A stretch of DNA of 64,000 bases from Octopus vulgaris. Lineage: Eukaryota. The notes under the pieces were generated by a model that was given only the letters and a program-made list of their open reading frames with translations, was not told where the DNA came from and ran no database searches. Numbering within the stretch: the first letter of the stretch is position 1; every line of letters begins with the position of its first letter. Below, piece after piece: positions 13,986-64,000 of the stretch. The translations under genes were made by a program, and so were the position numbers. The stretch is from assembly GCA_951406725.2 (NCBI GenBank), contig OX597814.1:225432001-225496000 (forward strand), read 5' to 3'.

Positions 13986-15279
13986 CGAGGAGCGTTCAAT
14001 AAATAATGCCTCTGACCCACTTGCAGTTGTTTGATCTAGCTGAAATTTTGCATGTGCAACTATTTGTATCTCTATAGATTAAGTGGCAGATTACAGCTCT
14101 GAACTAATTGTGGTTTCCGATTTACAGGTGTTTGAACTGAGTCAAGTGTGAAATGGAGCATGTTGAGTGTCGAGCAGTGATCCGGTTTTTGTATTTGAAA
14201 GGACGCACACCACGGGAGACTTTTGATGAAATGAAAGTAACTTATGGTGAGGATGCCCCATCATATGACCTTGTAAAACGCTGGCATCGTGAATTAAAAC
14301 ATGGTCGGAACTCTGTGGAAACAGCTCCCAGATCTGGTCGCCCCCTTCTGCCATTGATGAGGCATCTGTCTGTCAAGTCGAGGCTGCCATTTGGGAAGAT
14401 CGACGCATAGCTATTCGCCAAATAGCCCATGAGGTCAAGATTAGTACCGGGTCTGTGGAAACCAATCATTCATGACCATTTGCATATGCAAAAGGTGTCT
14501 GGCAGATGGATTCCCAGGTTGCTCACACCTTTCCAGAAGCAAGAACGCGTCGATTGCTCGAGGATGAATTTGGAGATGTGCCAAGAAGATGAGTCAAAAT
14601 TTTTCAAAAGACTGATTGCATAGGATGAAACCTGGGTCCATCACTATGATCCAGAGACCAAAGCCCAGTCAATGCAGTGGAAGCACCGTGACTCACCACC
14701 TCCAAAGAAGGCAAGGGTGCAGCCTTCCGCTGGCAAGGTCATGCTTACAGTCTTCTGGGACCAGGACGGAGTAGTGATGACAGATTTCCTGGCAAAGGGG
14801 TACCACAATTACAGGAGCCTATTATGCTTCACTTTTGAGGAAATTAAGAGAAGCTATCAAAATCAAGAGGCGGGGCAAGATCAGCAAAGTCATCCTCCTC
14901 CTGCAGGACAACGCTCCGATCCACAACTCGCGTGTCGCCAGATCAGAAGCACAGGCGTGCGGCTATGAACTCATCCCCCATCCCCCCTACTCTCCTGACC
15001 TTGCACCCTCTGATTTTCACCTCTTCCCAGCCATGAAGTTGTTTTTGAAAGGAAAGCGTTTCCCAGATGATGCAGCCTTGATTTCTGAAGTAACGTCGTG
15101 GTTGGAGGACCAAGCTGGGGTCTTCTACAAAAACGGTCTTCAGAGCTGCATCAAACGATGGGAGAAATGCGTAACTCTGGGTGGTTCCTATGTAGAAAAA
15201 GACTAATAACTGTTCCAAGTTTCGTTGCTCTACTGCTATGGGAAGTAGGTCAGGGGCATTACTTATTGAACGCTCCTCG
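13986..15279 (+). mobile_element. Mariner (DD34D) transposon, full length, inactivated transposase
   Basis: TIRs cgaggagcgttcaataaataatgcc / ggcattacttattgaacgctcctcg; TA duplication at 13984-13985 and 15280-15281; motifs WIPRLL, DETW, LLQDNA, YSPDLAPSDFHLF; frameshifts and one stop. Confidence 0.96.
14153..15206 (+). pseudogene. Mariner transposase pseudogene
   Basis: ORF pieces 14153-14410, 14429-14623, 14672-14968 and 14835-15206 join into one transposase. Confidence 0.93.
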
Positions 15280-33851: not shown

Positions 33852-33929
<78 letters not shown>

Positions 33930-33931
<2 letters not shown>

Positions 33932-34700
33932 TTATATTAAATTAGAGATAAAACCACTATTAGGCAAATCATACAATGAAAAACTTCAGCCAATACATAA
34001 GATTAATTAATTTATATTATTTTAAATATATATCAAAATTATTTAAAAAAAATATAATTAGTATAACACTACGATCGTTTCATGGCTGTCCAATTCTTAA
34101 AATTTCGAGTTACAGTCATTCTTCAGGTGATTTAAATATCTAAAATATAATCATAAATATTTAAACAATATTTTTAAGATATAAATAATATATATAATAT
34201 AATAATTTTACTTATAATGAACTCTATTATCAAACTAGGGACATAGAACTTAACAATTATGATTATATCCAAATCGACTATAATGTTAAATATTAATTTT
34301 AATTTATAAGGTAGGAAACCCACCAATAATCTAATATCAATATTAGTCTATATCTAATTACATAAATATTTAAAATGACTAATATATATAAATTATCAAT
34401 GAAAATAGATAAATGTATATAAATATTATAATTAAGATCTAAAATAATCTCTATAAATAATTGTATATGCACATATAATAAAAACCTAATAAATTTAATT
34501 TTTCATATTTAAAGATGAAATAGCTAATTTCAAAATACAAATAAACTAACTTAAACGAACTTTCAGAAATCTTATGTAAAATACTTTTAGAAATAATCAA
34601 TTCGTAGTAATATAGTATCGAATAAATACTATAAGTACTATAAATATAATTATGAATGGGAATAATTATCGAATATAAATTTAAAGAAATAACTAAGTTA
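33930..34700 (-). mobile_element. 3' terminal region of a Naiad-like PLE
   Basis: aattagagataaaaccactatt...gccaatacat and the hammerhead are homologous to 50799-51050 and 56298-56549. Confidence 0.7.
34067..34129 (-). ncRNA. Type I hammerhead ribozyme
   Basis: Reverse complement: cac CTGAAGA atgactgt...acagccat GAAA cgatcg TA gtg. Confidence 0.75.
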
Positions 34701-34772
34701 TGCTATTAAATTAGACATGGCCTGGACCAATCTTTAGTCGAAACATATCTAAGTTTATCAAAGTTTATCTAA
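34701..34772 (+). mobile_element. Isolated 3' tail of the APE-RT LINE family
   Basis: tgctattaaattagacatggcctggaccaat matches 59680-59710, followed by short tandem tail units. Confidence 0.7.
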
Positions 34773-34881
34773 TTTAATTATAAATTTAAAACTACAATTA
34801 ATACTATTAAAACATGTATATACAAAGCCTAACTTAATACACCTTGTATGCTTGCTATCAAATAATAAATCTATCTCTGTA

Positions 34882-35316
<435 letters not shown>

Positions 35317-35594
35317 TTTTAAATATTTAAATATTGAGGGAGATAAATTAATATTAATTTTAATATCAATTTAAAACCAGTAGTCCAGCATTCAAAAAAT
35401 CTGAGGAGTCAGAGAAAATTCAAATATATGTGTATATTGGCAGGGCTGGCCTGCTAGGTAGCCGGCCAAAATGCTAGAAGAAGATCATCAACGATCAAAC
35501 TACAAGGGAAATTCTCTAGAGGAAGAATTCAGCGAACACCAGAACCAACTTTGGCGGGCAGGACATATGAAAAATTAAATAAAAAACAGACTTA

Positions 35595-35670
35595 AATGCA
35601 TACCTCGGTTTCGGTCTTAACAAAAGAATTACTTGCATAATTCAAGTGTCCGTGACTTCATCAGTACATT
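35595..35670 (-). ncRNA. Type I hammerhead ribozyme (left palindrome arm)
   Basis: Reverse complement of 35787-35862. Confidence 0.7.
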
Positions 35671-35786
35671 CGGTCCTCGAGATGCAAACCGCAAGACTAA
35701 CCCCAGCTCTCTGTGTCAAGACAGACACGTGCTTAGTCTTACTGATTACATCGGGGTTAGTCTTGCGGTTTGCATCTCGAGGACCG

Positions 35787-35862
35787 AATGTACTGATGAA
35801 GTCACGGACATTTGAATTATGCAAGTAATTCTTTTGTTAAGACCGAAACCGAGGTATGCATT
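35787..35862 (+). ncRNA. Type I hammerhead ribozyme (right palindrome arm)
   Basis: aatgta CTGATGA a-gtc...gac-c GAAA ccgagg TA tgcatt; stem I aatgta/tgcatt; GUA triplet. Confidence 0.7.
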
Positions 35863-36016
35863 TAAGTCTGTTTTTTATTTAATTTTTCATATGTCCTGCC
35901 CGCCAAAAATGGTTCTGGTGTTCGCTGAATTCTTCCTCTAGAGAATTTCCCTTGTAGTTTGATCGTTGATGATCTTCTTCTAGCATTTTGGCCGGCTACC
36001 TAGCAGGCCAGCCCTG

Positions 36017-36077
<61 letters not shown>

Positions 36078-36173
36078 GGGAAGCTTTATGAAAATAGACA
36101 AAAGACGAAGGCAGGTGGAAAACAAACGAACAATTGTATTAGTATGGCGCTCAGGAAATATAAATTAAACAAG

Positions 36174-36211
36174 TCTTTAACGTTTCGAGCCTACGCTCTT
36201 CAACAGAAAGA
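36174..36211 (-). ncRNA. Minimal hammerhead-like variant (CUGUUGA core)
   Basis: Reverse complement: tcttt CTGTTGA a-gagc gtag gctc GAAA cg TT aaaga. Confidence 0.5.
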
Positions 36212-36380
36212 TACACAGAGAGAAAAAACACAGAAAGAAGGAGAGAAAAAATGCGTGCAGTAGCTAACGAATCAACATGGCGATCTGATTTCGGCCAGAG
36301 GTCAAAGATCAAACATGAGACGCGAGAGCGAAATAAGGGGAGATAATAGGGTTGATAATATGGTTGAAGGACCAGCTAAT

Positions 36381-45103: not shown

Positions 45104-46380
45104 CGAGGGGCGTTCAATAAGTAATGCCTCTGACCCACTTGCCGTTGTTTGATCTAGCTGAAATTTTGCATGTGCAATTATTTATATCTCTATAGATTAA
45201 GTGGCAGATTACAGCTCTGAACTAATTGTGGTTTCTGATTTACAGGTGTTTGAACTGAGTCAAGTGGGAAATGGAGCCTGTTGAGTGTCGAGCAGTGATC
45301 CGGTTTTTGTATTTGAAAGGATGCACACCACGGGAGACTTTTGATGAAATGAAAGTAACTTATGGTGATGATGCCCCATCATATGACCTTGTAAAACGCT
45401 GGCATCGTAAATTCAAACATGGTCGGAACTCTGTGGAAACTGCTCCCAGATCTGGTCGCACCCCTTCTGCCATTGATGAGGTATCTGTCTGTCAAGTTGA
45501 GGCTGCCATTTTGGAAGATCGACGCATAGCTATTCGCCAAATAGCCCATGAGGTCAAGATTAGTACCGGGTCTGTGGAAGCTATCATTCATGACTATTTG
45601 CATATGCAAAAGGTGTCTGCCAGATGGATTCCCAGGTTGCTCACACTTTTCCAGAAGCAAGAACCCGTCGAGTGCTCGAGGATGAATTTAGGGATGTGCC
45701 AAGAAGATGAGTCAAAAGTTTTCAAAAGACTGATTACACAGGATGAGACCTGGGTCCATCACAAAGCCCAGTCAGTGCAGTGGAAGCACCATGACTCACC
45801 TCCTCCAAAGAAGGCAAAGGTGCAGCCCTCCGCTGGCAAGGTCATGCTCACAGTCTTCTGGGACCAGGACAGAGTAGTGATGACAGATTTCCTGGCAAAG
45901 GGTACCATAATTACAGGTGCCTATCATGCTTCACTTTTGAGGAAATTAAGAGAAGCTATCAAAACCAAGAGGCGGGGCAAGATCAGCAAAGGCATCCTCC
46001 TCCTGCAGGACAACACTCCGGTCCACAACTCGCGTCTCGCCAGATCAGAAGCACAGGCGTGCGGCTATGAACTCTTCCCCCATCCCCCTACTCTTCTGAC
46101 CTTGCACCCTCTGATTTTCACCTTTTGCCAGCCATGAAGTTGTTTTTAAAAGGAAAGCGTTTCCCAGATGATGCAGCCTTGATTTCTGAAGTCACGTCGC
46201 GGTTGGAGGACCAAGCTGGGGTCTTCTACGAAAACGGTCTCCAGAGCTGCATCAAACGATGGGAGAAATGCGTAACTCTGAGTTGTTCCTATGCTGAAAA
46301 AGACTAATACCTGTGCCAAGTTTCGTTGCTCTACTGCTATGGGAAGTGGGTCAGGGGCATTACTTATTGAACGCCCCTCG
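45104..46380 (+). mobile_element. Mariner transposon, second full-length copy
   Basis: TIRs cgaggggcgttcaataagtaatgcc / ggcattacttattgaacgcccctcg with TA on both sides; same family as 13986-15279. Confidence 0.96.
45271..46307 (+). pseudogene. Mariner transposase pseudogene (15-bp in-frame deletion, one frameshift near HPPY)
   Basis: 288-aa ORF with WIPRLL, QDETW and LLQDN, plus C-terminal ORF 46125-46307. Confidence 0.93.
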
Positions 46381-46428
46381 TATATATATGTGTATCCACA
46401 CATTTTTCTACAATATATATGTATATAG

Positions 46429-46482
<54 letters not shown>

Positions 46483-46489
46483 ATCTATC

Positions 46490-46641: not shown

Positions 46642-47159
46642 GTTTTCCAGTCACTCTAACACCCCTCCCCCACCGACAAGAACCATCAAGAACCTCCCAT
46701 ACACAAGGAATTATCCCCCCTCAATGCTCCCCTCTCTCACGCTAATAACAAACAAGGCATCCTACCCACACCGATACATATAATACCCACCTAACGAACC
46801 CCTTATAGTCCACCCATCCAACAACCACATTCCTACCACATTTCCTACAGATCTCCAAACCCTCACATCCCACACGAACCCAATCACCACAACTACATAC
46901 CCCCCTATATCCCCCCATACAATCTACCAGTCACACACTCACAAACCCATCGCATTTCTCACAAAACCTTACACCATCGCATCCCATACCAACATAAATA
47001 CTACAACTACCTACCCCCCTCCAACCTCCCCACCCAAAAACACTCCTACACATACAACCAGAACTTTAACAAACAATACACCCCTTACCTCAACAACCAT
47101 TTTTTAGACAGAGGGGAAAAATACAAACACCACCGCTAACACAGACCCAAAATAAGAAA

Positions 47160-49396
47160 ACAAAAATTATAAACCTCTCCAGCAAAACACTGACACCAAC
47201 CCAAATCAACATCCTAGCAAGAGGTTTGAAATTCACACCCCAAGAACACCCAAGGATGACGTTTCTGAATTCTGCAGAAAACTTCGTCTAACAGAAGCTT
47301 TGACAGATATCAACAATGGGGACGATTCATTGATCAGAAATAAAAGCAACTTCCTACCATCAAAAGGGAGAAATAAAACACTGGACGATTTTTGCAAACA
47401 CATCCAGAGTCTCCCCTTTACCCCAAGCAAAACCAAGGTAAAATCCAATTTCAGTAAGGAAGAATGGAAAAACCTACGTGACATACAACTGGATAAAAAC
47501 CTTACCATCAAAGAAGCGGACAAAGGGAGTGCTGTGGTCCTTATGGACACGGAATTTTATAAACACCTAGTGTTTTCCATGCTTAACAATAACATTTTCT
47601 ATGAGGTTATTAACAACTATAAACAGCAAAAAACAATCAGAAACCTCACCACACTCATACGCCAACACGGTCAGGGACTCACAGAAAAAGAAAGGGATTA
47701 TATCACCATTTTCAAATGCAAGCCCAGCCTTTTTTATGGCCTTCCTAACATCCATAAAAACAAATACATCACCGAAGCCTGCAAACTCTCCTCTGACATC
47801 CACATCAACATCAAAGCACCGGAGGACCTAAAACTAAGGCCCATCGTGGCTGGTACCTCCTGTAAAACACACCGCCTGAGTAATTTCCTAGACATCCTTT
47901 TGAAACCTTTCCTTACCCACATCAAAAGTTTCATTAGGGATGATCTGGACATGCTCAAACATCTCCCGAAAACAGTTAACGAGGAGGCGCTCCTGGTATC
48001 CTTTGATGTCATCAACCTCTACACCAACATCCCACATGAATATGGTATAGAGGCAATTGACTTCTGGCTAGAAAAACACCCAGAGACATTCCCTGACCGC
48101 ATTAACAAGACTTTTATTACAGAATCTCTCAAGTTCATTCTGACAAACAATTTTTTCTCTTCGACGACACACACTACCGTCAAAAATGTGGTATTGCGAT
48201 GGGTACCAAGGCTGCACCAGTCCTTGCGAACCTCATAATGGGTTTCTTCGAACTATCACTCTATGAAATATCAAGCCAGAAATTTGGACATGTTTTCCAC
48301 ACCTACCTAATGGAAAACTGGAAAAGGTATTTGGATGATTGTTTCATCATATGGAAAGAACCTTATCAAAAACTCCTGGAATTCAAAACCACACTAAACA
48401 ACATACATCCCAACATCCAATTCACTATGGAATTAAGCAAACATCATCTCCCATTCCTTGATCTCCTAATTATAAAAACACCTAAGAACCAAATCATAAC
48501 AGACATCTACCACAAACCTACAGACTCACAACAATACCTCCTCTTTAGTTCATGCCACCCAAAACACACCAAGACAAATATCCCTTTCAATTTAGCTAAA
48601 AGGGTATGCACCATTGTCTCGGATCCAAAAACACGAGAAATACGCCTTCAAGACCTCAAAAAAACACTATTACAACGTCAATATCCCTCCACCCTTATAG
48701 AGTATGGAATAAAACGCGCCAAAGAACTAGATAACACTACACTGAAAACCACCCAACCTAACACCACACACAACCTCAAAATACTTCCATACATTTCCAC
48801 CCACAACCCCCAAAATATCGAAGCATACACAACAATCATACAAAACCTCAGTCTACTGTCAACAGACCCAAAAATGAAAAACATTATAAATACACACAAA
48901 ATCCTCAAATGTAAAAGGCAACACAAATCTTTAAAAAAACTCTTGACAAATGCCAAACTTCACACACCACATCCACCCCCAGCAGTAAACAAAATGTGCA
49001 CGTCCAAACTGTGGCACCTGCCCCTTCCTACTTGAAGGCTCTGAATTTACCTTCAAACAAGGTATGAAGTTTAAAATCAAGACTAACTTCTGTTCCTCCG
49101 AGAACCTTATCTACGTTCTCACATGCGCTGGTTGCCAACATAATTATGTTGGACAAACAAGTCTCCCGTTACATAAACGAGTAGCGGTGCATAAAGAACA
49201 AATAAATCTCCCGGAATACCGACAAATTCCACTGAGTGACCACTTAGACTCATGTGCTAAAGACTTAAACCCCAAATTCTATATATTCCCCTTCTACCAA
49301 TGTAAAGACGGGATCACCACACAGGAGAGAATTAACAAGGAGAATCTCTTTATTGAACAATTCCAAACACAACTTAATATGCAAACTCCTCGTTGA
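47160..49396 (+). pseudogene. PLE reverse transcriptase plus GIY-YIG endonuclease, frameshifted
   Basis: ORFs 47300-48238, 48199-49035 and 49064-49396 are consecutive pieces of one protein. Confidence 0.9.
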
Positions 49397-50172: not shown

Positions 50173-50796
<624 letters not shown>

Positions 50797-50896
50797 ACAT
50801 TAATTAGAGAAAAAACCACTATTATGCAAATCAAACAAAGAAAGACTTAATCCAATACATAAAAAAATTTATATAAATTAAATATAATTAAGATAT

Positions 50897-50942
50897 CCAC
50901 TACGATCGTTTCTTGTCACTTCTATGGACATTCATCAGGTGG
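50897..50942 (-). ncRNA. Type I hammerhead ribozyme (inverted pLTR)
   Basis: Reverse complement: ccac CTGATGA a-tgtc catagaagt gaca-a GAAA cgatcg TA gtgg. Confidence 0.78.
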
Positions 50943-51054
50943 TTTCAAGACCTAAAATATAATCAATATTTTTAAGATATAAATTTGAAATGACTAATAT
51001 ATATAAAATATAAAATTATCAATGAAAATATATATAATCAAGAACTAAAAAGGA

Positions 51055-53305
51055 ACCTCCATTTAATAAAGACTTACAATTACTAGAAGATAATATATGG
51101 AAGGTGGTAAAAAATATTAAATTCCATAAATACCCAAATAGAAATAATTAATATTTAAGAAATTTAGCAATTAGAATTAAAGATATGAGAAATATGGATG
51201 GTATTATAGTACAATCTGATAAAACTAGGAATCTATATAAATTGGATGTTAAATTATATGATAAACTTTTAGAGAAAGAAATAATTAAAAAATATAAAAT
51301 TGTTCCAGATAGTAAACTTTATAATATTAATAAGGCCTCTAAATTAGTAATGATAAACTATGAATTGGATAATAAAACTGAACCTTATGTACCTTTGCAC
51401 CCCAGAATTACTCTGAAAGACCATAAAGATAATTTTTATTCAGACCCTAAAGTTAGATTAATTTGTCCATGTAAATCTGACCTAGGTAAATTAAGTAAAT
51501 TTATTTTAGATAAATATATTAATAAATTAAATAAACTTAATTATTTAAAATTATGGTTTAGTAATAACAATAATTTGAAATGGTTTAATAATATTAAAGA
51601 TAAAAATCGTTATAAATTTATTCAAATAGATATAGATAATTATTATTCTTCTATTAATGAAATTGTGTTTAATAAGGCCCTTATTTTCGCAATGAATAAA
51701 GTGGGAATGACATTTGAAGAAGTTAATGTAATTAAAATGGCTAGGAAATCGCTCATTAAATATAAAAATAAATTATGGGCTAAGAAAGATACTAGGGATT
51801 GTTTTGATATACCTATGGGAGCACCTGATTCTGCACAAGCTGCAGGTTTAGTAGGTATTTATCTTTTATCTGAACTCCGATTAGAAAATCTAAAGATAGA
51901 GGGTGGTTTATATGGGGATGACCTTCTACTAATTACAAAGAATTGTACTAATAAGAATCTAGAAGTATATAAGAAAAAACTTTATAGTTTCTTTAAAAGA
52001 TATGGTTTAAGTATCACAATATATAAGGAGAATTCTAATGTTAATTATTTAGATGTTAATTTTAATCTAATTACAGGTAAAACACAACCATATAAAATTA
52101 ATGAAAACCTTAGATATATAAATGTTAATAGTAATCACCCACATTCTATTAAAAAATCGTTGATTAATAATATAAGTAAACGTATTTCATTACTCTCTTA
52201 TGATATAGAGATTTTTAATAAACATGCTCCTTATTATAATGAGGCCCTTAGAGAGGCAGGTTATAATAGGAATATTAAATTTTATAATAAAATTAATGAT
52301 AAAGATATAACTAATAATTTTAGAGATAATTTTATTAATAATAATTATAATTTTGTTAGTATTAGTGGTAAAAATATTAGAAATTATAAAAATAAAAATA
52401 ATAAAAATAAAAAATAAGAATAAGAATAATAATAATAATAATAATAATAATATTAATAAAATTAATAACATTAATAATTCTTTAAATGTTGTACATAGAT
52501 ATAAATCTGATAATAGTAATAATTTTAATATGATAAAGAAATATAAATACAATAATAATAATGACAGTTATAATAATAATAAGGTAAATATGAATAAAAT
52601 TTGGTTAATAGTTCCTTATGGTGATCATGTTAAAACGAATATTATTAAAGAGATTTTAGATATTATCGAACTCTTTATTCGAGATAATCGTAAATATAAA
52701 AACATTTTCTCTAGTAATAATTTTGGAGTAGGTTATTCCACCACTAATAATGTAGGTAACATTATTTCTTCATTTAACAAATTTAAACTGAATAATTTTT
52801 ATAAAAATAAATTATTTAATAATACTAATAATAAAGATAAGACATATATTAACTGTTCTTGTAGAGATAAATCTAAATGTAAATTAAATACTAAATGCGA
52901 TATTAATGATGTAGTGTATAAATGTATAGTTACATTACATGATAATAATTTTAAGAATAATAATTACCCAAAAGCGATTTATATAGGGTCTACTTCCTCT
53001 AAAATAAAATTAAGAATCGCACAACATCTGAATTCTTTTAAAAATAAAAACTTAATCAACTCCACTGGACTTAGCAAGTACATTTGGAGACTTAAATCAC
53101 AAAATATTAATTATAATTTATCTTCAGAAATAATTTGTAAAACTAAATCATATACTATAGGAGCGAATTTTTGTTATTTGTGCTCTAATGAGTTTAAGGA
53201 AATTTTATTTATAGGTATGATAATTTACTGAATACAGGTGAAGAGCGCAAAATAAAATGCAGACACAGGTTACTTTACTTATATAATAAGTTTCATGATA
53301 AATAA
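51055..53305 (+). pseudogene. Naiad-like PLE RT plus C-terminal GIY-YIG endonuclease, frameshifted
   Basis: ITLKDHK, PKVRLICPCKSDLGKLSK, DIDNYYSSI, FDIPMGAPDSA, LYGDD, YLDV, SNHP; CSCRDKSKC...VVYKC...IYIGST...CYLC and, after a frameshift, LLN...CRH. Confidence 0.9.
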
Positions 53306-53681
53306 TAATTATTTATTAATATTAAATAGCTCCCTATTATAGGTTTTGTTCTAGTATTATAAATTTTAAATGTTTAGAGTACTTTTTATTTTTATAATAA
53401 TTTATTTTAGTTATGTAGTTTAGGTTTTAATTATAGTTAGATTATAGATGGTTTTTCATTGTATTAATTAATTTCTTATTAATGTATATTAAATATAACT
53501 GTTTATTGAATATTGAGTCTGGTAAGTTAGAATTTTATTTATTTTAGATTTATTTTAGATTTATTTTATTTATTTTATTTTATTATTTACCTCTATTATG
53601 TATTGTAGTATATAGACATTTATATATATTTATTTATAATTTATGTGAATGTGTGTGTTTGTATATATGAGTATTTGTTGA

Positions 53682-53726
<45 letters not shown>

Positions 53727-56405
53727 TTATTTATTTGGATGGTGTGGGCGTGTATATATTGGTGTATATATCGAGTATTGTATGTATGTATAAGTATGTA
53801 TGAGTATGTATATGTGTGTGGTGTAGGTGTGTGTACATATGTGTGTGTATATATGTATATGAAAGTATGTGAGTATATATGTGTATATGTGTATGTATAT
53901 GTATATGTATGTAGATGTGTGTGTGTGTATATACGTATTTGTGCATGTGTATGTGTATATATGTATATATGTATATGTGCATGCGTGAGTTTGGTATTTT
54001 ATTATATTGTGTATGCGTGTGTGTGGTTGTACTATAAATGTTTTGTGTAGTATATGGGTTTGTTATGAATATTAGTCTTAGGTTGGGATGTGTGGGTGTG
54101 GGAAATAGTTTATAGTGTGGGGGTATTGCTATATAGATTTGTATTGTGTATTTAATAATTGTTGGTTTTAGTCATTTAATTTTTTATGTGCGTTTCATTA
54201 TCATGGTTATTTTTAATGAATATTATATCTGTGTCTATATGTATATGTGTATGCATAGATATATATATATATATGTATGTGGATGTGTACGTATTTAGAT
54301 AAGTTTATTTACATTCATATATTATACTATAATATTAATTTATGGCTGATATGGGTATAACCTGATACGGGTTGAATTGGATGAATGGGAGCCACATGTT
54401 GTTGAATGCATAGGGGTGCATTTGGATGGTTGTCCCCTATATATTGTGAATGTTTCCAATCCCCTTGTATTATAGTTTGGGAATGGTGATCATGGCAGAT
54501 TTATTTATGCTGGGTGAGATTGTGATGTAGCCATATATACGTATATATAGATGTATGGGAGGGTGTCCGTGAATATGCATGTGCATGTGCGTGTGTGCAC
54601 GTGTGCGCGTGTACTAGTGTATGTGTAGATGCGGGTGTGCATGCGTGCACATGTACATGCGTGTGCTTGTGTATGCACATGTATACATGCATGCTTGCAT
54701 GTGCGCGCGTTTGCACTCGTATGAGTGTACACACTCATACTTATTTTTTTGTGAATGTGTGTGTTTTTATATATATGAGTATTTGATGTGTGTGTATATA
54801 TATATATATATATTTATGGATGTATATGTATTTATTTATTTATTTGTATGAGTGTGGGTGTGAATATATTGGTGTATATATCGTGTATTGTACGTATGTA
54901 TATGTATATGTGAGTGTGTATATGTATATGGGTGTGGGTGGGTGTAAATATGTGAGTGTATATGTGTGTGAATGTATAGATGGGGGGATTGCAATATAGG
55001 CTTGTTCTTGTGTATCTGTTAATGGGTGGTTTTGATCATTATATTTGTTTTGTTTGGGTTTGTTTATCATGCTTGTTTTATTAAAGAATATTTTAGTAAA
55101 TTCATTCTATTTACGATGATAAACATATTATTCCATTCATAATCTTTAAAATAACGTTGGTTCATCACGCGCAAAGAATTTATAAAAAATTTATTCTATT
55201 TCTGTTGATAACGTAATTTCTTAAACGCTGTAAGACGTTTGTCATTCAAATTTACTTCATAGTTCAAAATTGCATAGAAGGTACGTACTTTTTTTTAAGA
55301 TCTCCAAATTGTAATTTTTAATATGTATAAGCCTTTGAATAATAATATTCTCCTTATGTTAATCTTGTTGTTTATGTAGTGATCTATTTATCGTATTTTT
55401 CTTTGTTATTAGTTATTAAATAATTTAGACAAACTTTGATAAATAGATAGGTTTCGATTTAAAATGGTTTAGGCTATGTTTAATAATAGAATAATTTTAT
55501 ATACGATAATATTTCCATTCATAAATTTGTTTATAGTAATGATAGTATTTTTTAATAATATATTACTAAGTAAGGATTATTCCTATAAGTATGTAGCTGA
55601 GTATCTGTGTCTACTGGATTTGTTTCTCCTCTGTGTTAGAGTATTGCAGTGTGAATACGGTTATGTATGAATGATTGTATGTGTGTGTGTGAGTATGCAT
55701 TATTAATGTGTAGAAATATTGTCTTTATGTATTTGTGTATGTATAAATATATACGTGTGTGTGTGTTTGTTTACGTATTTATATATGGTTATTACATGCA
55801 TATAGTATATAGAATATATATGTGTGTGTGTTTGTCTACGTATTTATATATGGTTATTACATATATATAGTATATAGTATTTAATAATATTTTACTAAGA
55901 ATGAAATGTTTCTATAAGTTTGTGGTTGAGTATCTGCGGCTACTGGATGTTATATTTCCTCTGTGTTAGTATCATGTTGAGAGAATATGTTTATGAATGA
56001 GTGATTGTATGTGTGTGTGTGGGAGTATGAATAAGTAATGTGTAGAAGTATACGGCTACATTATAAATTTATCTTTGTCTATATGTTTATGTGTATGTAT
56101 AGATATATATATGTGTGTGTGAGTTTGTGTATGTATTTAGATATGTTTATATAAATACATGGATATATGTGCATGATCATGTGTGTATATATATTTTTTA
56201 TTTTTTTGTTTTTTGTTTCTTGAAATTAGCTATTTCATCTTTAAATATGAGAATTTAAATACTAGGTTTCATTATATACAATCGTTTATAGAGGTTATTT
56301 TAGTTTTTGATTATATATATTTTCATTGATAATTTTATATTTTATATATATTAGTCATTTCAAATTTATATCTTAAAAATATTGATTATATTTTAGGTCT
56401 TGAAA

Positions 56406-56451
56406 CCACCTGATGAATGTCCATAGAAGTGACAAGAAACGATCGTAGTGG
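56406..56451 (+). ncRNA. Type I hammerhead ribozyme (sense 3' pLTR)
   Basis: ccac CTGATGA a-tgtc...gaca-a GAAA cgatcg TA gtgg. Confidence 0.78.
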
Positions 56452-56637
56452 ATATCTTAATTATATTTAATTTATATAAAGATTTTTGTGTATTGGATTA
56501 AGTCTTTCTTTGTTTGATTTGCATAATAGTGGTTTTGTCTCTAATTAATATTATATTATATTTTACTATAAAATTGAATTCAATCCTAAATCTGATTTTT
56601 CCCTGTAAATTTGGTTTTTTCCCTAATATTTATTATA

Positions 56638-56676
<39 letters not shown>

Positions 56677-56681
<5 letters not shown>

Positions 56682-59600
56682 CACCAAAACAATTAAAACC
56701 ATCCACTCTCGCCTCAACATTTCTGCTTAATGCCCAAGGCATCAGCCCTTCCACCAATACACAAAAATAGAAGATAAGATTCCTGGAGGACTGGGTCGAG
56801 GCCCATCCAAACCACATCCCTTTCTTCGTCCTCACTGAAACCCATCTTAGTGACCTCCACTTGGAAGCCGAGGTGAAAGTTAAAAATTTCAAAACCATTC
56901 GTGCTGATCGTGCTGGCAGAAGAAAGGGTGGGACTGCCATTTATGTCCATGATTCATTCTCAACAGAAGCCATGAACATACTTTTCAATGGATACCGCGA
57001 AGCAGTCGCTGTATTCAGTCAAACCAACAACTTAACAGTAGTTGGGCTCTATAGACCACCCCAAACGCCCCTACCATGCTTCAAGGAATGCCTCAACAGC
57101 ATAAAGTGTTTCATTCAGCAGTGTCAACCTGACAACATTTTAATGATGGGAGACTTCAACCTTCCCGGGGTTGACTGGTCTACAAACAGTCTGCCGCCAG
57201 GTTCTTCTCTCTCAACCCCTGACAGGGAGGCAGTGGAATCGCCTCTTGACTTCATGGATGATTTCTTCCTGTCCCAACTGGTACTCGAACCAACGAGATG
57301 TCATAAATACGTCTTAATTTTCAGCAATCACACTGATACTATCCACAATATTGCAGTGGAGAAAACCCTACTCTCCGACCATGACATGGTTCTCTGTGAT
57401 CTGAGATTTCACTGGCCAAAATGCAAAACAAATGTCATCCCTCCTGTTCATCCATTTGACACTATGGATTTCCACAATGCAAACTGGGAAGCGATCAATA
57501 ATGATCTTGCACAAGTCGATTGGTCCTTCACGCACACATACACACCCACTAACATCAAAAAGTCCTGGCAGTCACTTGTAGACACCATCACGAACATATG
57601 TGCAAGACACACCCCATTAAGATCTGCAAACAAATCTAAGTGTCGACTCCCTAGAAATAGAAAATCTCTCATAAGGAAAATTAAAAGAATTAACAAAAAG
57701 ATCAACATGCTGAAATACTGTCAACAGCAACACACCAACCTGACTGCCATCTCGTCGCTAGAGATTAAAAAACATAAACTCCAAAACAACATGATGTCTA
57801 TCATCAATAGTCAGCGAAGAGCTGAAGAGGCCTGGGCCATTGAGAAGATCAAACTCAATCCCAAAGTGTTCTTTTCATTTGCAAAAAAACACAGAGTCAC
57901 TGGTTCTACTGTTGGCCCTCTGATTGATGAAAATGGTACTCTTCAAGACAATGCCAAAACCATGGGAGAGATATTGCAGAAACAATATTGCTCTGTTTTC
58001 AGCAATCCTGATATGACTGATCTGGGCTGTATCAGTGATGTTACTCCCCAATACACTTTATCGGACATAACCTTTGGCGCTCCTGATGTCTTAGCAGCAA
58101 TAAAGGAAATGAAGCATAATTCAGCAGTATGTCCCGATAGGTTCCCTGCTTGTGTCTTGAAGACGTGTCAAAACCAACTTGCACCCCTTCTAGCCAATCT
58201 GTGGCGGAACTCACTGGATGCTGGATATATACCAGAAGACCTTCTATCCCAGTCTGTTGTCCCAGTTTTCAAAAAAGGAAACAAATCGCTTGCCGTGAAT
58301 TACCGTCCAATCTCACTCACCTCTCATATCATCAAGGTATTTGAGAGGGTGCTGAGATCGCGTATGACTCACTTCCTTGAGAGTCATAATATGCTGAACC
58401 CCAACCAGCATGGATTCCGTAATGGGAGAGATTGCCTGACGCAGCTACTGCATCATTTTGATGACATTTTGAGAGCCTTGGAGAAGGTTCCAACACTGAT
58501 GTCATCTACCTTGATTTCAGCAAGGCCTTTGACAGGGTTGATCATAAGATCCTTCTGAGAAAGCTGTCCAATATTGGTGTCACTGGAAAGCTGCTGCAGT
58601 GGATCAAGTGCTTCCTGTCTAACAGAACCCAACATGTAGTCGAAGGAGTCAAATCCAGCCCAGCCAAAGTCAGCAGTGGTGTCCCACAAGGCACTGTGTT
58701 GGGACCACTTCTCTTCATCATCTACATAAATGATATTACTGACACCATCAAACACAGCAACATCAGAACCTTCGCTGATGATTCCAAGCTCCAGAAGGTC
58801 ATCAATGGCGTGGATGACCGAATAAACCTTCAGTCAGACCTACTGGCTGTTGTCCAATGGGCGGAAAAGAATAACATGTTGCTACATGAAGACAAATTCG
58901 AACTGATCCACTTTGGAAGGGAGGACGCTCTGAAACTCCCATACTCTCTTCCTTCTGGAGAAATTCTCATGGCATCCAACAACATCAAGACTTGGGAGTA
59001 ACAGTGGACAACAACATAAGCTGGGCTACACATATAAGCAGCAAAGTTGACATGGCCCGCAGAATGTGTTCCTGGATTCTCAGAACCTTCCAGTCGAGAG
59101 ATTCCCACACTATTATCCTTCTCTTCTCCCTTTTGCCCAACCCCACCTTGAATACTGCTGTCCACTGTGGTCTCCCTACACAAAACAAAATATTATGAGA
59201 ATTGAAGCTCCCCAAAGGTCAATCACAAAAAAGATAGATGGCATGTCAGACCTTGACTACTGGGGTAGACTAGAGAAGCTGAAATTGTATTCACTCCAAC
59301 GACGCCGTGAACGCTACATTATCTGTATGATGTGGAAAAATATTCCATCAGTACTGTCCGAATGATGTTGGCATCACCTTCAAAATACATCCAAGGCTTG
59401 GACCACGTGCCACCCGTCCACAACGAAAATCTAAATCGCATCACATAACGACAATACGGCACAACTATTTCACCTCAATTGGACCCGCTCTCTTCAACAT
59501 TACACCAGGACACGTCAAAAAAGAAACTGACCACACAAAATTCAAGAAGTCTTTGGACAAATTCCTTCAAACAGTACCGGACAAACCACCCACACCCGGA

Positions 59601-59744
59601 TATGTCTCCGCAAACAATAACTCTCTGCTCGAATGGGCCTTGGTGCCCAAATCCTGAACTGAAAGACTTCGCCAGGTGGTGCTATTAAGTTAGACATGGC
59701 CTGGGCCAATACTGGCCAAAACCTTTCTAGGTTATTCTAAGTTA
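56677..59744 (+). mobile_element. APE-RT LINE (CR1/L2-like group) with near-complete ORF2, frameshifted
   Basis: APE motifs NAQG, LTETHL, GGTAIYV, LYRPP, MGDFN, SDH; RT motifs [28 protein letters not shown]; 3' tail of (TTCTA(A/G)GTTA) units. Confidence 0.93.
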
Positions 59745-59752
59745 TATGTATA

Positions 59753-59794
59753 TACTTTGATACTTTGATACTTTGATAGGTTTCGGTCATTATT
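59753..59794 (-). mobile_element. Very short LINE-like 3' tail with (TATCAAAG)3
   Basis: Reverse complement aataatgaccgaaacctatcaaagtatcaaagtatcaaagta parallels the family's tail structure. Confidence 0.5.
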
Positions 59795-61602: not shown

Positions 61603-61675
<73 letters not shown>

Positions 61676-61677
<2 letters not shown>

Positions 61678-64000
61678 ACTTAGAATAACTTAGAAAGGTT
61701 TTTGGCCAGTATTGGCCCAGGCCATGTCTAACTTAATAGCACCACCTGGCGAAGTCTTTCAGTTCAGGATTTGGGCACCAAGGCCCATTCGAGCAGAGAG
61801 TTATTGTTTGCGGAGACATATCCGGGTGTGGGTGGTTTGTCCGGTACTGTTTGAAGGAATTTGTCCAAAGACTTCTTGAATTTTGTGTGGTCAGTTTCTT
61901 TTTTGACGTGTCCTGGTGTAATGTTGAAGAGAGCGGGTCCAATTGAGGTGAAATAGTTGTGCCGTATTGTCGTTATGTGATGCGATTTAGATTTTTGTTG
62001 TGGACGGATGGCACGTGGTCCAAGCCTTGGATGCATTTTGAAGGTGATGCCAACATCATTCGGACAGTGCTGATGGAATATTTTCCACATCATACAGATA
62101 ATGTAGCGTTCACGGCGTCGTTGGAGTGAATACAATTTCAGCTTCTCTAGTCTACCCCAGTAGTCAAGGTCTGACATGCCATCTATCTTTTTTGTGATTG
62201 ACCTTTGGGAAGCTTCAATTCTCATAATATTTTGTTTTGTGTAGGGAGACCACAGTGGACAGCAGTATTCAAGGTGGGGTCGGGCAAAAGTGGAGAAGAG
62301 AAGGATAATAGCGTGGGAATCTCTCGACTGGAAGGTTCTGAGAATCCAGGAACACATTCTGCGGGCCATGTCAACTTTGCTGCTTATATGTGTAGCCCAG
62401 CTTATGTTGTTGTCCACTGTTACTCCTAAGTCTCTGATGTTGTTGGATGCCATGAGAATTTCTCCAGAAGGAAGAGAGTATGGGAGTTTCAGAGCGTCCT
62501 CCCTTCCAAAGTGGATCAGTTCGAATTTGTCTTCATTTAGCAACATGTTATTCTTTTCCGCCCATTGGACAACAGCCAGTAGGTCTGACTGAAGGTTTAT
62601 TCGGTCATCCACGCCATTGATGACCTTCTGGAGCTTGGAATCATCAGCGAAGGTTCTGATGTTGCTGTGTTTGATGGTGTCAGTAATATCATTTATGTAG
62701 ATGATGAAGAGAAGTGGGCCCAACACAGTGCCTTGTGGGACACCACTGCTGACTTTGGCTGGGCTGGATTTGACTCCCTCGACTACAACATGTTAGGTTC
62801 TGTTAGAGAGGAAGCACTTGATCCATTGCAGCAGCTTTCCAGTGACACCAATATTGGACAGCTTTCTCAGAAGGATCTTATGATCAACCCTGTCAAAGGC
62901 CTTGCTGAAATTAAGGTAGATGACATCAGTGTTGGAACCCTCTCCCAAGGCTCTCAAAATGTCATCAAAATGATGCAGTAGCTGCGTCAGGCAATCTCTC
63001 CCATTACGGAATCCATGCTGGTTGGGGTTCAGCATATTATGACTCTCAAGGAAGTGAGTCATACGCGATCTCAGCACCCTCTCAAATACCTTGATGATAT
63101 GAGAGGTGAGTGAGATTGGACGGTAATTCACGGCAAGCGATTTGTTTCCTTTTTTGAAAACTGGGACAACAGACTGGGATAGAAGGTCTTCTGGTATATA
63201 TCCAGCATCCAGTGAGTTCCGCCACAGATTGGCTAGAGGGGGTGCAAGTTGGTTTTGACACATCTTCAAGACACAAGCAGGGAACCTATCGGGACATACT
63301 GCTGAATTATGCTTCATTTCCTTTATTGCTGCTAAGACATCAGGAGCGCCAAAGGTTATGTCCGATAAAGTGTATTGGGGAGTAACATCACTGATACAGC
63401 CCAGATCAGTCATATCAGGATTGCTGAAAACAGAGCAATATTGTTTCTGCAATATTTCTCCCATGGTTTTGGCATTGTCTTGAAGAGTACCATTTTCATC
63501 AATCAGAGGGCCAACAGTAGAACCAGTGACTCTGTGTTTTTTTGCAAATGAAAAGAACACTTTGGGATTGAGTTTGATCTTCTCAATGGCCCAGGCCTCT
63601 TCAGCTCTTCGCTGACTATTGATGATAGACATCATGTTGTTTTGGAGTTTATGTTTTTTAATCTCTAGCGACGAGATGGCAGTCAGGTTGGTGTGTTGCT
63701 GTTGACAGTATTTCAGCATGTTGATCTTTTTGTTGATTCTTTTAATTTTCCTTATGAGAGATTTTCTATTTCTAGGGATTCGACACTTAGATTTGTTTGC
63801 AGATCTTAATGGGGTGTGTCTTGCACATATGTTCGTGATGGTGTCTACAAGTGAATGCCAGGACTTTTTGATGTTAGTGGGTGTGTATGTGTGCGTGAAG
63901 GACCAATCGACTTGTGCAAGATCATTATTGATCGCTTCCCAGTTTGCATTGTGGAAATCCATAGTGTCAAATGGATGAACAGGAGGGATGACATTTGTTT
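61676..64000 (-). mobile_element. LINE copy nearly identical to 56677-59744, continuing past the window end
   Basis: ORFs 62793-63962 and 61764-62726 are separated by a single in-frame stop (CAA to TAA); same 3' tail. Confidence 0.94.

Follow-up and report, generated by a model that had tools for sequence, protein, structure and literature searches.

A 64,000-nucleotide stretch of Octopus vulgaris DNA, called the window below, contains a near-perfect 592-bp palindrome that places a hammerhead on each strand, which raises the question of whether this palindrome is an element in its own right or a by-product of some other kind of insertion. Sequence comparison across the genome indicates that the locus belongs, as one truncated copy, to a young, noncoding family of tandem hammerhead repeats with a 546-nt monomer. 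The palindrome itself is probably a 5'-truncated, two-armed insertion of this repeat into a (TA)n tract, made in trans by a Penelope-type enzyme, and a dead end.

Structure of the two-armed insertion

The arms of the inverted repeat span 35433-35704 and 35753-36024, each 272 bp, with three mismatches between them (35548, 35549 and 35646) and a 48-nt centre at 35705-35752, so that the geometry given in the original prediction was reproduced in full. The palindrome was also said to lack an open reading frame, which is borne out by many stops in all six frames; the three frames of 64-81 aa that it does contain had no match to Pfam profiles. The boundaries required correction. TA-rich sequence had been placed on both sides, and this is correct on the right, but the 115 bp at 35318-35432 on the left are more of the element, and the insertion measures about 707 bp rather than 592 bp. 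Nor do the 48 nt form a separate spacer, since they are ordinary monomer sequence and a property of the left arm. The features are listed in Table 1, in which monomer position 1 is the first base past the predicted cleavage site. Compared by BLAST with the reference monomer, a natural one from an array at locus L027, the left arm is 99% and the right arm 97% identical, and at all three arm differences it is the right arm that deviates from the family majority. The short arm is nested wholly inside the long arm.

Table 1. Features of the insertion in window coordinates
Feature	Coordinates	Strand	Basis
(TA)n target tract, left	35172..35311	.	sequence
Six AT-rich bases between tract and element, unmatched to the monomer	35312..35317	.	
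Long arm, 438 bp, monomer 392-546 then 1-283, ending at site B	35318..35755	-	BLAST
One-sided tail, 115 bp, monomer 169-283, between end sites A and B	35318..35432	-	
Former "spacer", the stretch of the long arm (monomer 395-442) that the short arm does not mirror, within a natural monomer hairpin	35705..35752	-	
Inversion junction, GGG common to both arms, unique in the genome	35753..35755	.	
Short arm, 272 bp, monomer 443-546 then 1-168, ending at site A	35753..36024	+	
(TA)n target tract, right	36025..36077	.	sequence
Type I hammerhead	35787..35862	+	motif by eye, constrained folding, covariation
Type I hammerhead, minus copy, predicted cut between 35601 and 35600	35595..35670	-	

Each strand does carry a hammerhead, and both are of type I. 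In the plus-strand copy, stem I pairs 35787-92 with 35857-62 (6 bp), the core consists of CUGAUGA (35793-99) and GAAA (35845-48), stem II is long and comprises an A·C closing pair and a 45-nt branched extension, stem III has 2 bp and a self-complementary loop, and cleavage is predicted after GUA at 35856. Of the canonical type I elements, CUGANGA, GAAA, UH, a 6-bp helix I and a short helix III with a palindromic loop are present. Rfam searches at the gathering threshold and at E ≤ 10 returned no hammerhead family, the matches being hairpin and TA noise only. Among 40 copies (31 distinct rows), 94.5% of the cells in the proposed helices are paired, versus 31-41% in slid controls, where the cells count sequences rather than events, many sequences representing few events. 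Compensatory changes at two pairs (A-U/U-A/C-G in stem I and C-G/U-A in stem II, in the 31 distinct rows) support the type I fold. A type III reading made by eye, with a GUU cut and a 5-bp stem I upstream, was dropped because the compensatory changes sit in the type I stem I. The sole polymorphic column of the core is N7 (57 T, 61 A).

Both window copies have A·C at the pair 10.1-11.1, as do 25 of the 31 distinct rows, and 6 of the 31 have G-C; because of this A·C, hammerhead cleavage in the family may be weak. For the isolated motif, free energy does not favour the hammerhead fold (z -0.8 and -0.2), and in the older copies with G-C at this pair stem II forms (z -2.6). The stem III loop is predicted to form a self-duplex of -6.6 kcal/mol, and hammerheads with a short helix III are described as needing a nearby second copy (PMC4209133).

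The 546-nt family and the ends of its insertions

The genome search gave 1233 candidates, with many matches at a spacing of 546 bp, and exact matches numbered 332 for the core 24-mer and 167 for its older-subfamily variant. The monomers are noncoding, low in GC (39%) and arranged in tandem, with up to about four per arm, and each holds a type I hammerhead by core motif and covariation. At least half of the family words are present in 16 public runs with five organism codes; run X11, guessed to be RNA, contains a 375-nt contig of plain monomer, which we do not take as transcription. Of 1320 candidates, the 40 best were examined; only three of them contain three full monomers, and none is a long master array.

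Loci L001-L099 collapse to 80 unique complete insertions, comprising 53 head-to-head, 27 one-armed and no tail-to-tail copies. At least two hammerheads on one strand were found in 14 of the 80, and the source RNA likely comes from this minority of loci, whose transcripts would cleave as dimers. The 5' ends of the arms are scattered along the monomer, and there are two fixed, AT-rich 3'-end sites, A (monomer ~165-177) and B (~266-289), which lie ~110 nt apart. The 53 two-armed copies end at A and B in 37 cases, at B and another site in 13, at A and another site in one and at two other sites in two, and no copy has A or B at both ends. Random pairing would give 18.4 same-site pairs where none is observed, and none of 200,000 permutations lacked such pairs. 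The same rule is seen in the older subfamilies (L100-L131 without L129, a flank duplicate of L128), where 13 of 31 loci are two-armed (10 A+B, two B+other, one A+other), so that in both samples together none of the 66 two-armed copies ends twice at one site. Both samples were selected by core patterns and are biased to core-holding copies; for the same reason the crossing of the cleavage site by 103 of the 133 arms was not used as evidence, as the sampling patterns span that site. Loci L069 and L070, 325 kb apart on C2, have one junction in common yet were counted as two. This pair, and likewise L128 and L129, which share a flank, are likely duplications at the DNA level.

The insertions have the layout of Penelope-type insertions in being inverted, 5'-truncated and head-to-head (53 of 80 and 13 of 31 loci, with no tail-to-tail copy in either set), in having a tail at one end (the 115 bp on the left arm of the window copy) and in targeting (TA)n or AT-rich sequence: 126 of the 133 3' ends adjoin at least four TA units, which are very common in this genome. 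The two arms overlap by 1-7 nt at 32 of the 53 junctions. One arm is nested in the other at 35 of the 53 two-armed loci, and at the other 18 neither arm is contained in its partner, so that snap-back of DNA alone cannot have produced them and two primings on RNA are needed. A full core on each strand is held by 14 of the 53 two-armed copies, and hairpin rods are thus a common by-product.

Copies within an insertion resemble one another more closely than copies from different insertions. Arm divergence is 1.6% within a locus versus 3.3% between loci (42 loci), and over 11 haplotype columns the copy pairs within loci agree in 717 of 721 comparisons; with columns 455 and 457 added, agreement within loci is 802 of 831, and 44% of pairs between loci differ at the 13 columns. 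Near-private variants are found in every copy at 21 of the 80 loci, and at L087 four of them occur in both arms and in five monomers. Given this likeness within loci, the shared private variants and the lack of a long master array among the 40 best candidates, the multimers seem to have been rebuilt from one monomer, via rolling circle or end-to-end jumps, and gene conversion could explain the similarity of the arms in part.

The exception is a linked change at monomer positions 455 and 457, which was found at 13 loci on seven haplotype backgrounds and which in eight loci is confined to some monomers of its own array, often to a single one. It makes positions 455-459 complementary to 482-486, in stem I and the core, and agrees with the sequence of the older subfamilies. 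The carriers include L013, L027, L032, L050, L084, L089, L098 and L099. A quasi-palindrome template switch could make such a change anew each time, and a template switch while copying is the likely explanation; the rival account is that the mixture within loci reflects mixed templates. As a separate observation, private changes in the 80 young insertions are uneven when read in the ribozyme sense, with T>C at 38 versus A>G at 14 (p=0.025, uncorrected) and a strand skew of C>A at 25 versus G>T at 9.

Origin of the palindrome

We propose that a Penelope-type protein with RT and GIY-YIG functions, acting in trans, would nick both strands of the TA tract, with one nicked strand priming at B and its partner at A, both on a single RNA template. 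Each cDNA would halt at a variable position, here 392 and 443, and the two cDNA 3' ends would then join via GGG. Arms of several monomers would likely arise by copying round a circular monomer, or else by end-to-end jumps on a cleaved one. The Penelope-type inverted origin that was first suggested for the palindrome is retained here; its derivation directly from the pLTR pair of a coding element is not, the apparent parent being the 546-nt tandem retrozyme. In L1 twin priming, both target strands likewise prime on one RNA and microhomology joins the inversion, with the second primer at variable internal sites and with two pieces that do not overlap, whereas the 546-nt family has two fixed sites and its arms often copy one stretch. 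Purified Penelope protein, as described in PMC11167929, cuts and extends both strands, has been modelled as a dimer and initiates reverse transcription at two internal sites, one at each end of the tail, and hammerhead cleavage is dispensable for its insertion in vitro.

A more specific version, offered tentatively and in our judgement rather doubtful, has a circular 546-nt RNA copied in rolling fashion, from both nicked strands of a TA tract, by a dimeric Penelope enzyme whose two subunits would start at A and at B, and a recurrent quasi-palindrome switch that would turn the three bases at 455-457 into a complement of the core and so toggle a hairpin masking the hammerhead. If it were true, the genomic copies would be a direct record of how inverted and tandem Penelope insertions are made. 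A dimeric enzyme holding the two sites on a linear multimer would, however, also yield the A/B rule, so that a circle is not required, and the 455/457 differences between the monomers of one array in eight loci would not be given by one circle unless they had arisen anew in copying.

Snap-back provides another route to the same dead-end insertion, which we regard as unlikely. The B-primed cDNA would fold at GGG/CCC in the 392-469 hairpin and copy to A, and the copied end at A would join the second target end. Self-priming has been proposed for inverted junctions of Penelope (PMC3846280), and the nesting of the short arm, seen at 35 of the 53 loci including this one, is as this route would have it. 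So is the position of the junctions, which for the window copy, L041 and L046 lie in one natural hairpin and for L084 at the tip of a second one. It does not account for the 18 of 53 loci that are not nested, and at the window locus the junction is out of register, as the natural hairpin would return near 470 and not at 443. In addition, 8 of the 133 arms start at 441-445, some of them in one-armed copies, which suggests that 443 is an ordinary stop. Priming of both strands on one RNA is preferred to snap-back.

The original prediction envisaged a fold-back RNA element, mobile or with a function, that could take up either the ribozyme fold or a dsRNA rod; this now appears very improbable. A near-perfect rod is indeed predicted (-539 kcal/mol), and the two cores of this copy have their counterpart in the 14 two-armed copies mentioned above. 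Recurrence as a unit was expected of such an element, but the junction 21-mer has a single match in the 2.8-Gb genome and the 53 two-armed copies have scattered junctions; the locus thus corresponds to the one-off truncated insertion that had been named as the opposing case. Fold-back elements or MITEs would have identical ends and a recurring centre, and here the ends differ. The boundaries were off by 115 bp, and a longer inverted pair, of 2.3 kb at 98.6% identity, lies in the same window. The proposed choice between ribozyme and rod also finds no support in the predicted folds. The antisense arm is transcribed first, and for transcripts that read through the locus on either strand a rod of about -540 kcal/mol is predicted in which the core is paired (P(unpaired) ≤0.001); forcing the ribozyme fold costs 121-124 kcal/mol in the full palindrome versus 8 in the right arm alone. 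Feeding of ADAR or Dicer had been proposed as well; an ADAR footprint is not reflected in the copies, as the private changes of the 80 copies show no A>G excess on the sense strand (14 A>G versus 38 T>C).

If transcribed, the window copy is accordingly predicted by these folding models to have both hammerheads locked in a rod of ~270 bp. A 2026 preprint calls a copy active when it has at least two consecutive hammerheads, and the window copy has one per strand; with this single hammerhead no monomer would be released from it. Modelling thus points to an inactive, dead-end insertion.

An artefact, in which a fold-back read or the assembly made a one-armed copy palindromic, is extremely unlikely. 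Contigs listed from four public runs (X1, X2, X3 and X11) never bridge the junction, but these runs may be from other individuals and such contigs can show the presence of a junction and not its absence. A fold-back read would mirror the flanks too, and the flanks here are unmirrored; each arm has its own family-specific end, and there are three differences between the arms, which makes such a read implausible, and 65 further two-armed loci obey the same end rule as this one. The long inverted repeats and the TA at both ends of the 592-bp interval would also suit a DNA transposon, such as a MITE, that has long terminal inverted repeats and duplicates a TA target. This reading has practically no chance of being correct and is refuted by the copy structures, as the A and B ends differ in sequence and the copies are tandem and truncated at the 5' end, come in all lengths and are one-armed in 27 of 80 cases.

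Neighbouring and known elements

The search for an autonomous partner covered the window and the fetched loci. When the five Penelope frames found in the window were run by tblastn against every fetched locus, matches lay only in unrelated flanks, and none of the longest frames of L101-L131 is joined to a monomer. Neither the element nor the fetched loci contain an ORF with RT and GIY-YIG, and pLTR homology of the monomer to an autonomous element was found neither in the window nor in the 131 loci. A further search, with stem III unchanged and stem II shorter, returned family members only. At monomer positions 510-516, 544-549 and 90-100 there are what we take, by eye, to be splice-donor-like motifs in or beside the hammerhead and a downstream acceptor-like tract, possibly, on our assumption, a relic of a Penelope pLTR intron.

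Several other repeats were observed in the window. A frameshifted Penelope-like ORF at 47156-49396 (+) has weak RVT_1 and GIY-YIG matches and a cysteine-rich linker, and its DNA is not similar to the retrozyme. A second Penelope-like element (50681-56677) has its ORF pieces (51152-53231) between inverted repeats of 394 bp (87%), each with a hammerhead-like motif, at 50938 (-) and 56410 (+). A decayed relative of the end of this element lies at 33924-34780, with a hammerhead-like core at 34126 (-), and adjoins the TA tracts on the left, which suggests a nest of Penelope-type insertions in this region. Another abundant repeat, at 36078-36300 (-), abuts the same (TA)n tracts, is also found beside L025 and L101, and has a small hammerhead-like motif at about 36170-36205. 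A 16-bp inverted repeat (34873-34888 and 35151-35166) faces two (TA)n tracts, with a 170-bp insert between. The 2.3-kb inverted pair is LINE-like RT sequence (57426-59754 and 61666-64000, 98.6% identical) that reaches the window edge and would give a longer potential dsRNA than the 592-bp palindrome. Mariner-type transposase remnants lie at 14141-15206 and 45259-46484, with an HTH_48 match at 14141-14407. Of the candidate frames at 8-47 kb, the 91 of 140 scanned against Pfam gave three matches, to a mariner HTH, weakly to an RT and, below threshold, to an acetyltransferase.

Non-LTR retrozymes are described as tandem repeats with a type I hammerhead that are expressed as circles (PMC7229834, Cervera and de la Pena 2020), and they have been linked to Penelope pLTRs (Li, Clavereau and Pollet 2026, 10.64898/2026.07.22.740005); in the latter account, eight of nine predicted elements failed to cleave. 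As in the metazoan non-LTR retrozymes so described, the monomers of the 546-nt family are noncoding, tandem and low in GC with one type I hammerhead each, the short helix III points to dimeric cleavage, and young copies are dispersed; the proposal that such retrozymes ride on Penelope-like elements parallels what we infer for this family. The monomer is longer than the 170-400 nt given in PMC7229834 and falls within the 51-972 bp given in 10.64898/2026.07.22.740005. Two thirds of the sampled copies are head-to-head, whereas the word "inverted" is absent from the main text of PMC7229834. The family also differs from retrozymes in the A·C at 10.1-11.1, and is known here from DNA rather than as circles or cleavage. 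With the minimal metazoan type I hammerheads of PMC4209133 it shares the 6-bp helix I, the 2-bp helix III with its small self-complementary loop and the CUGANGA/GAAA/GUA core. It departs from canonical hammerheads, as that source presents them, in the replacement of the conserved G10.1-C11.1 by A·C and in the 45-nt branched stem II, and it has no Rfam match.

Penelope insertions are described as often having an inverted 5'-truncated copy and a tail of 30-40 bp at one end, with (TA)n favoured as target (PMC8557442, PMC3846280). Endonuclease-positive Penelope insertions with inverted pLTRs resemble the present family, according to these descriptions, in the inverted 5'-truncated copy at the 5' end, the one-end tail and the (TA)n or AT-rich targets, and Penelope-like elements also share junction microhomology or palindromes, a hammerhead in the repeat and two RT start sites. 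Unlike them, the 546-nt family lacks an RT or GIY-YIG frame, and its tail is about 100-115 nt rather than 30-40. The tail is called "optional" or "often at one end" in those papers, whereas in the 546-nt family the same site is used twice in 0 of 66 copies. The locus thus belongs to a new family in a known layout; the layout is the published Penelope one, and the family is likely a new non-LTR retrozyme. In searches of the openly accessible literature, we did not find the 546-nt family, the long tail or a count for the strict end rule.

Taken alone, the window locus is ordinary, of little weight and likely a dead copy. The 546-nt family, on the other hand, is a clean natural data set on the formation of tandem and inverted structures by Penelope-type priming, which PMC8557442 states as an open question. 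Its strict rule of one site per arm, the 110-nt tail and the shared private variants tie a retrozyme mechanistically to Penelope enzymes, and it offers the existing in vitro system a short RNA on which two start sites are predicted. Two thirds of its copies are inverted repeats, from which dsRNA would form if they were read through.
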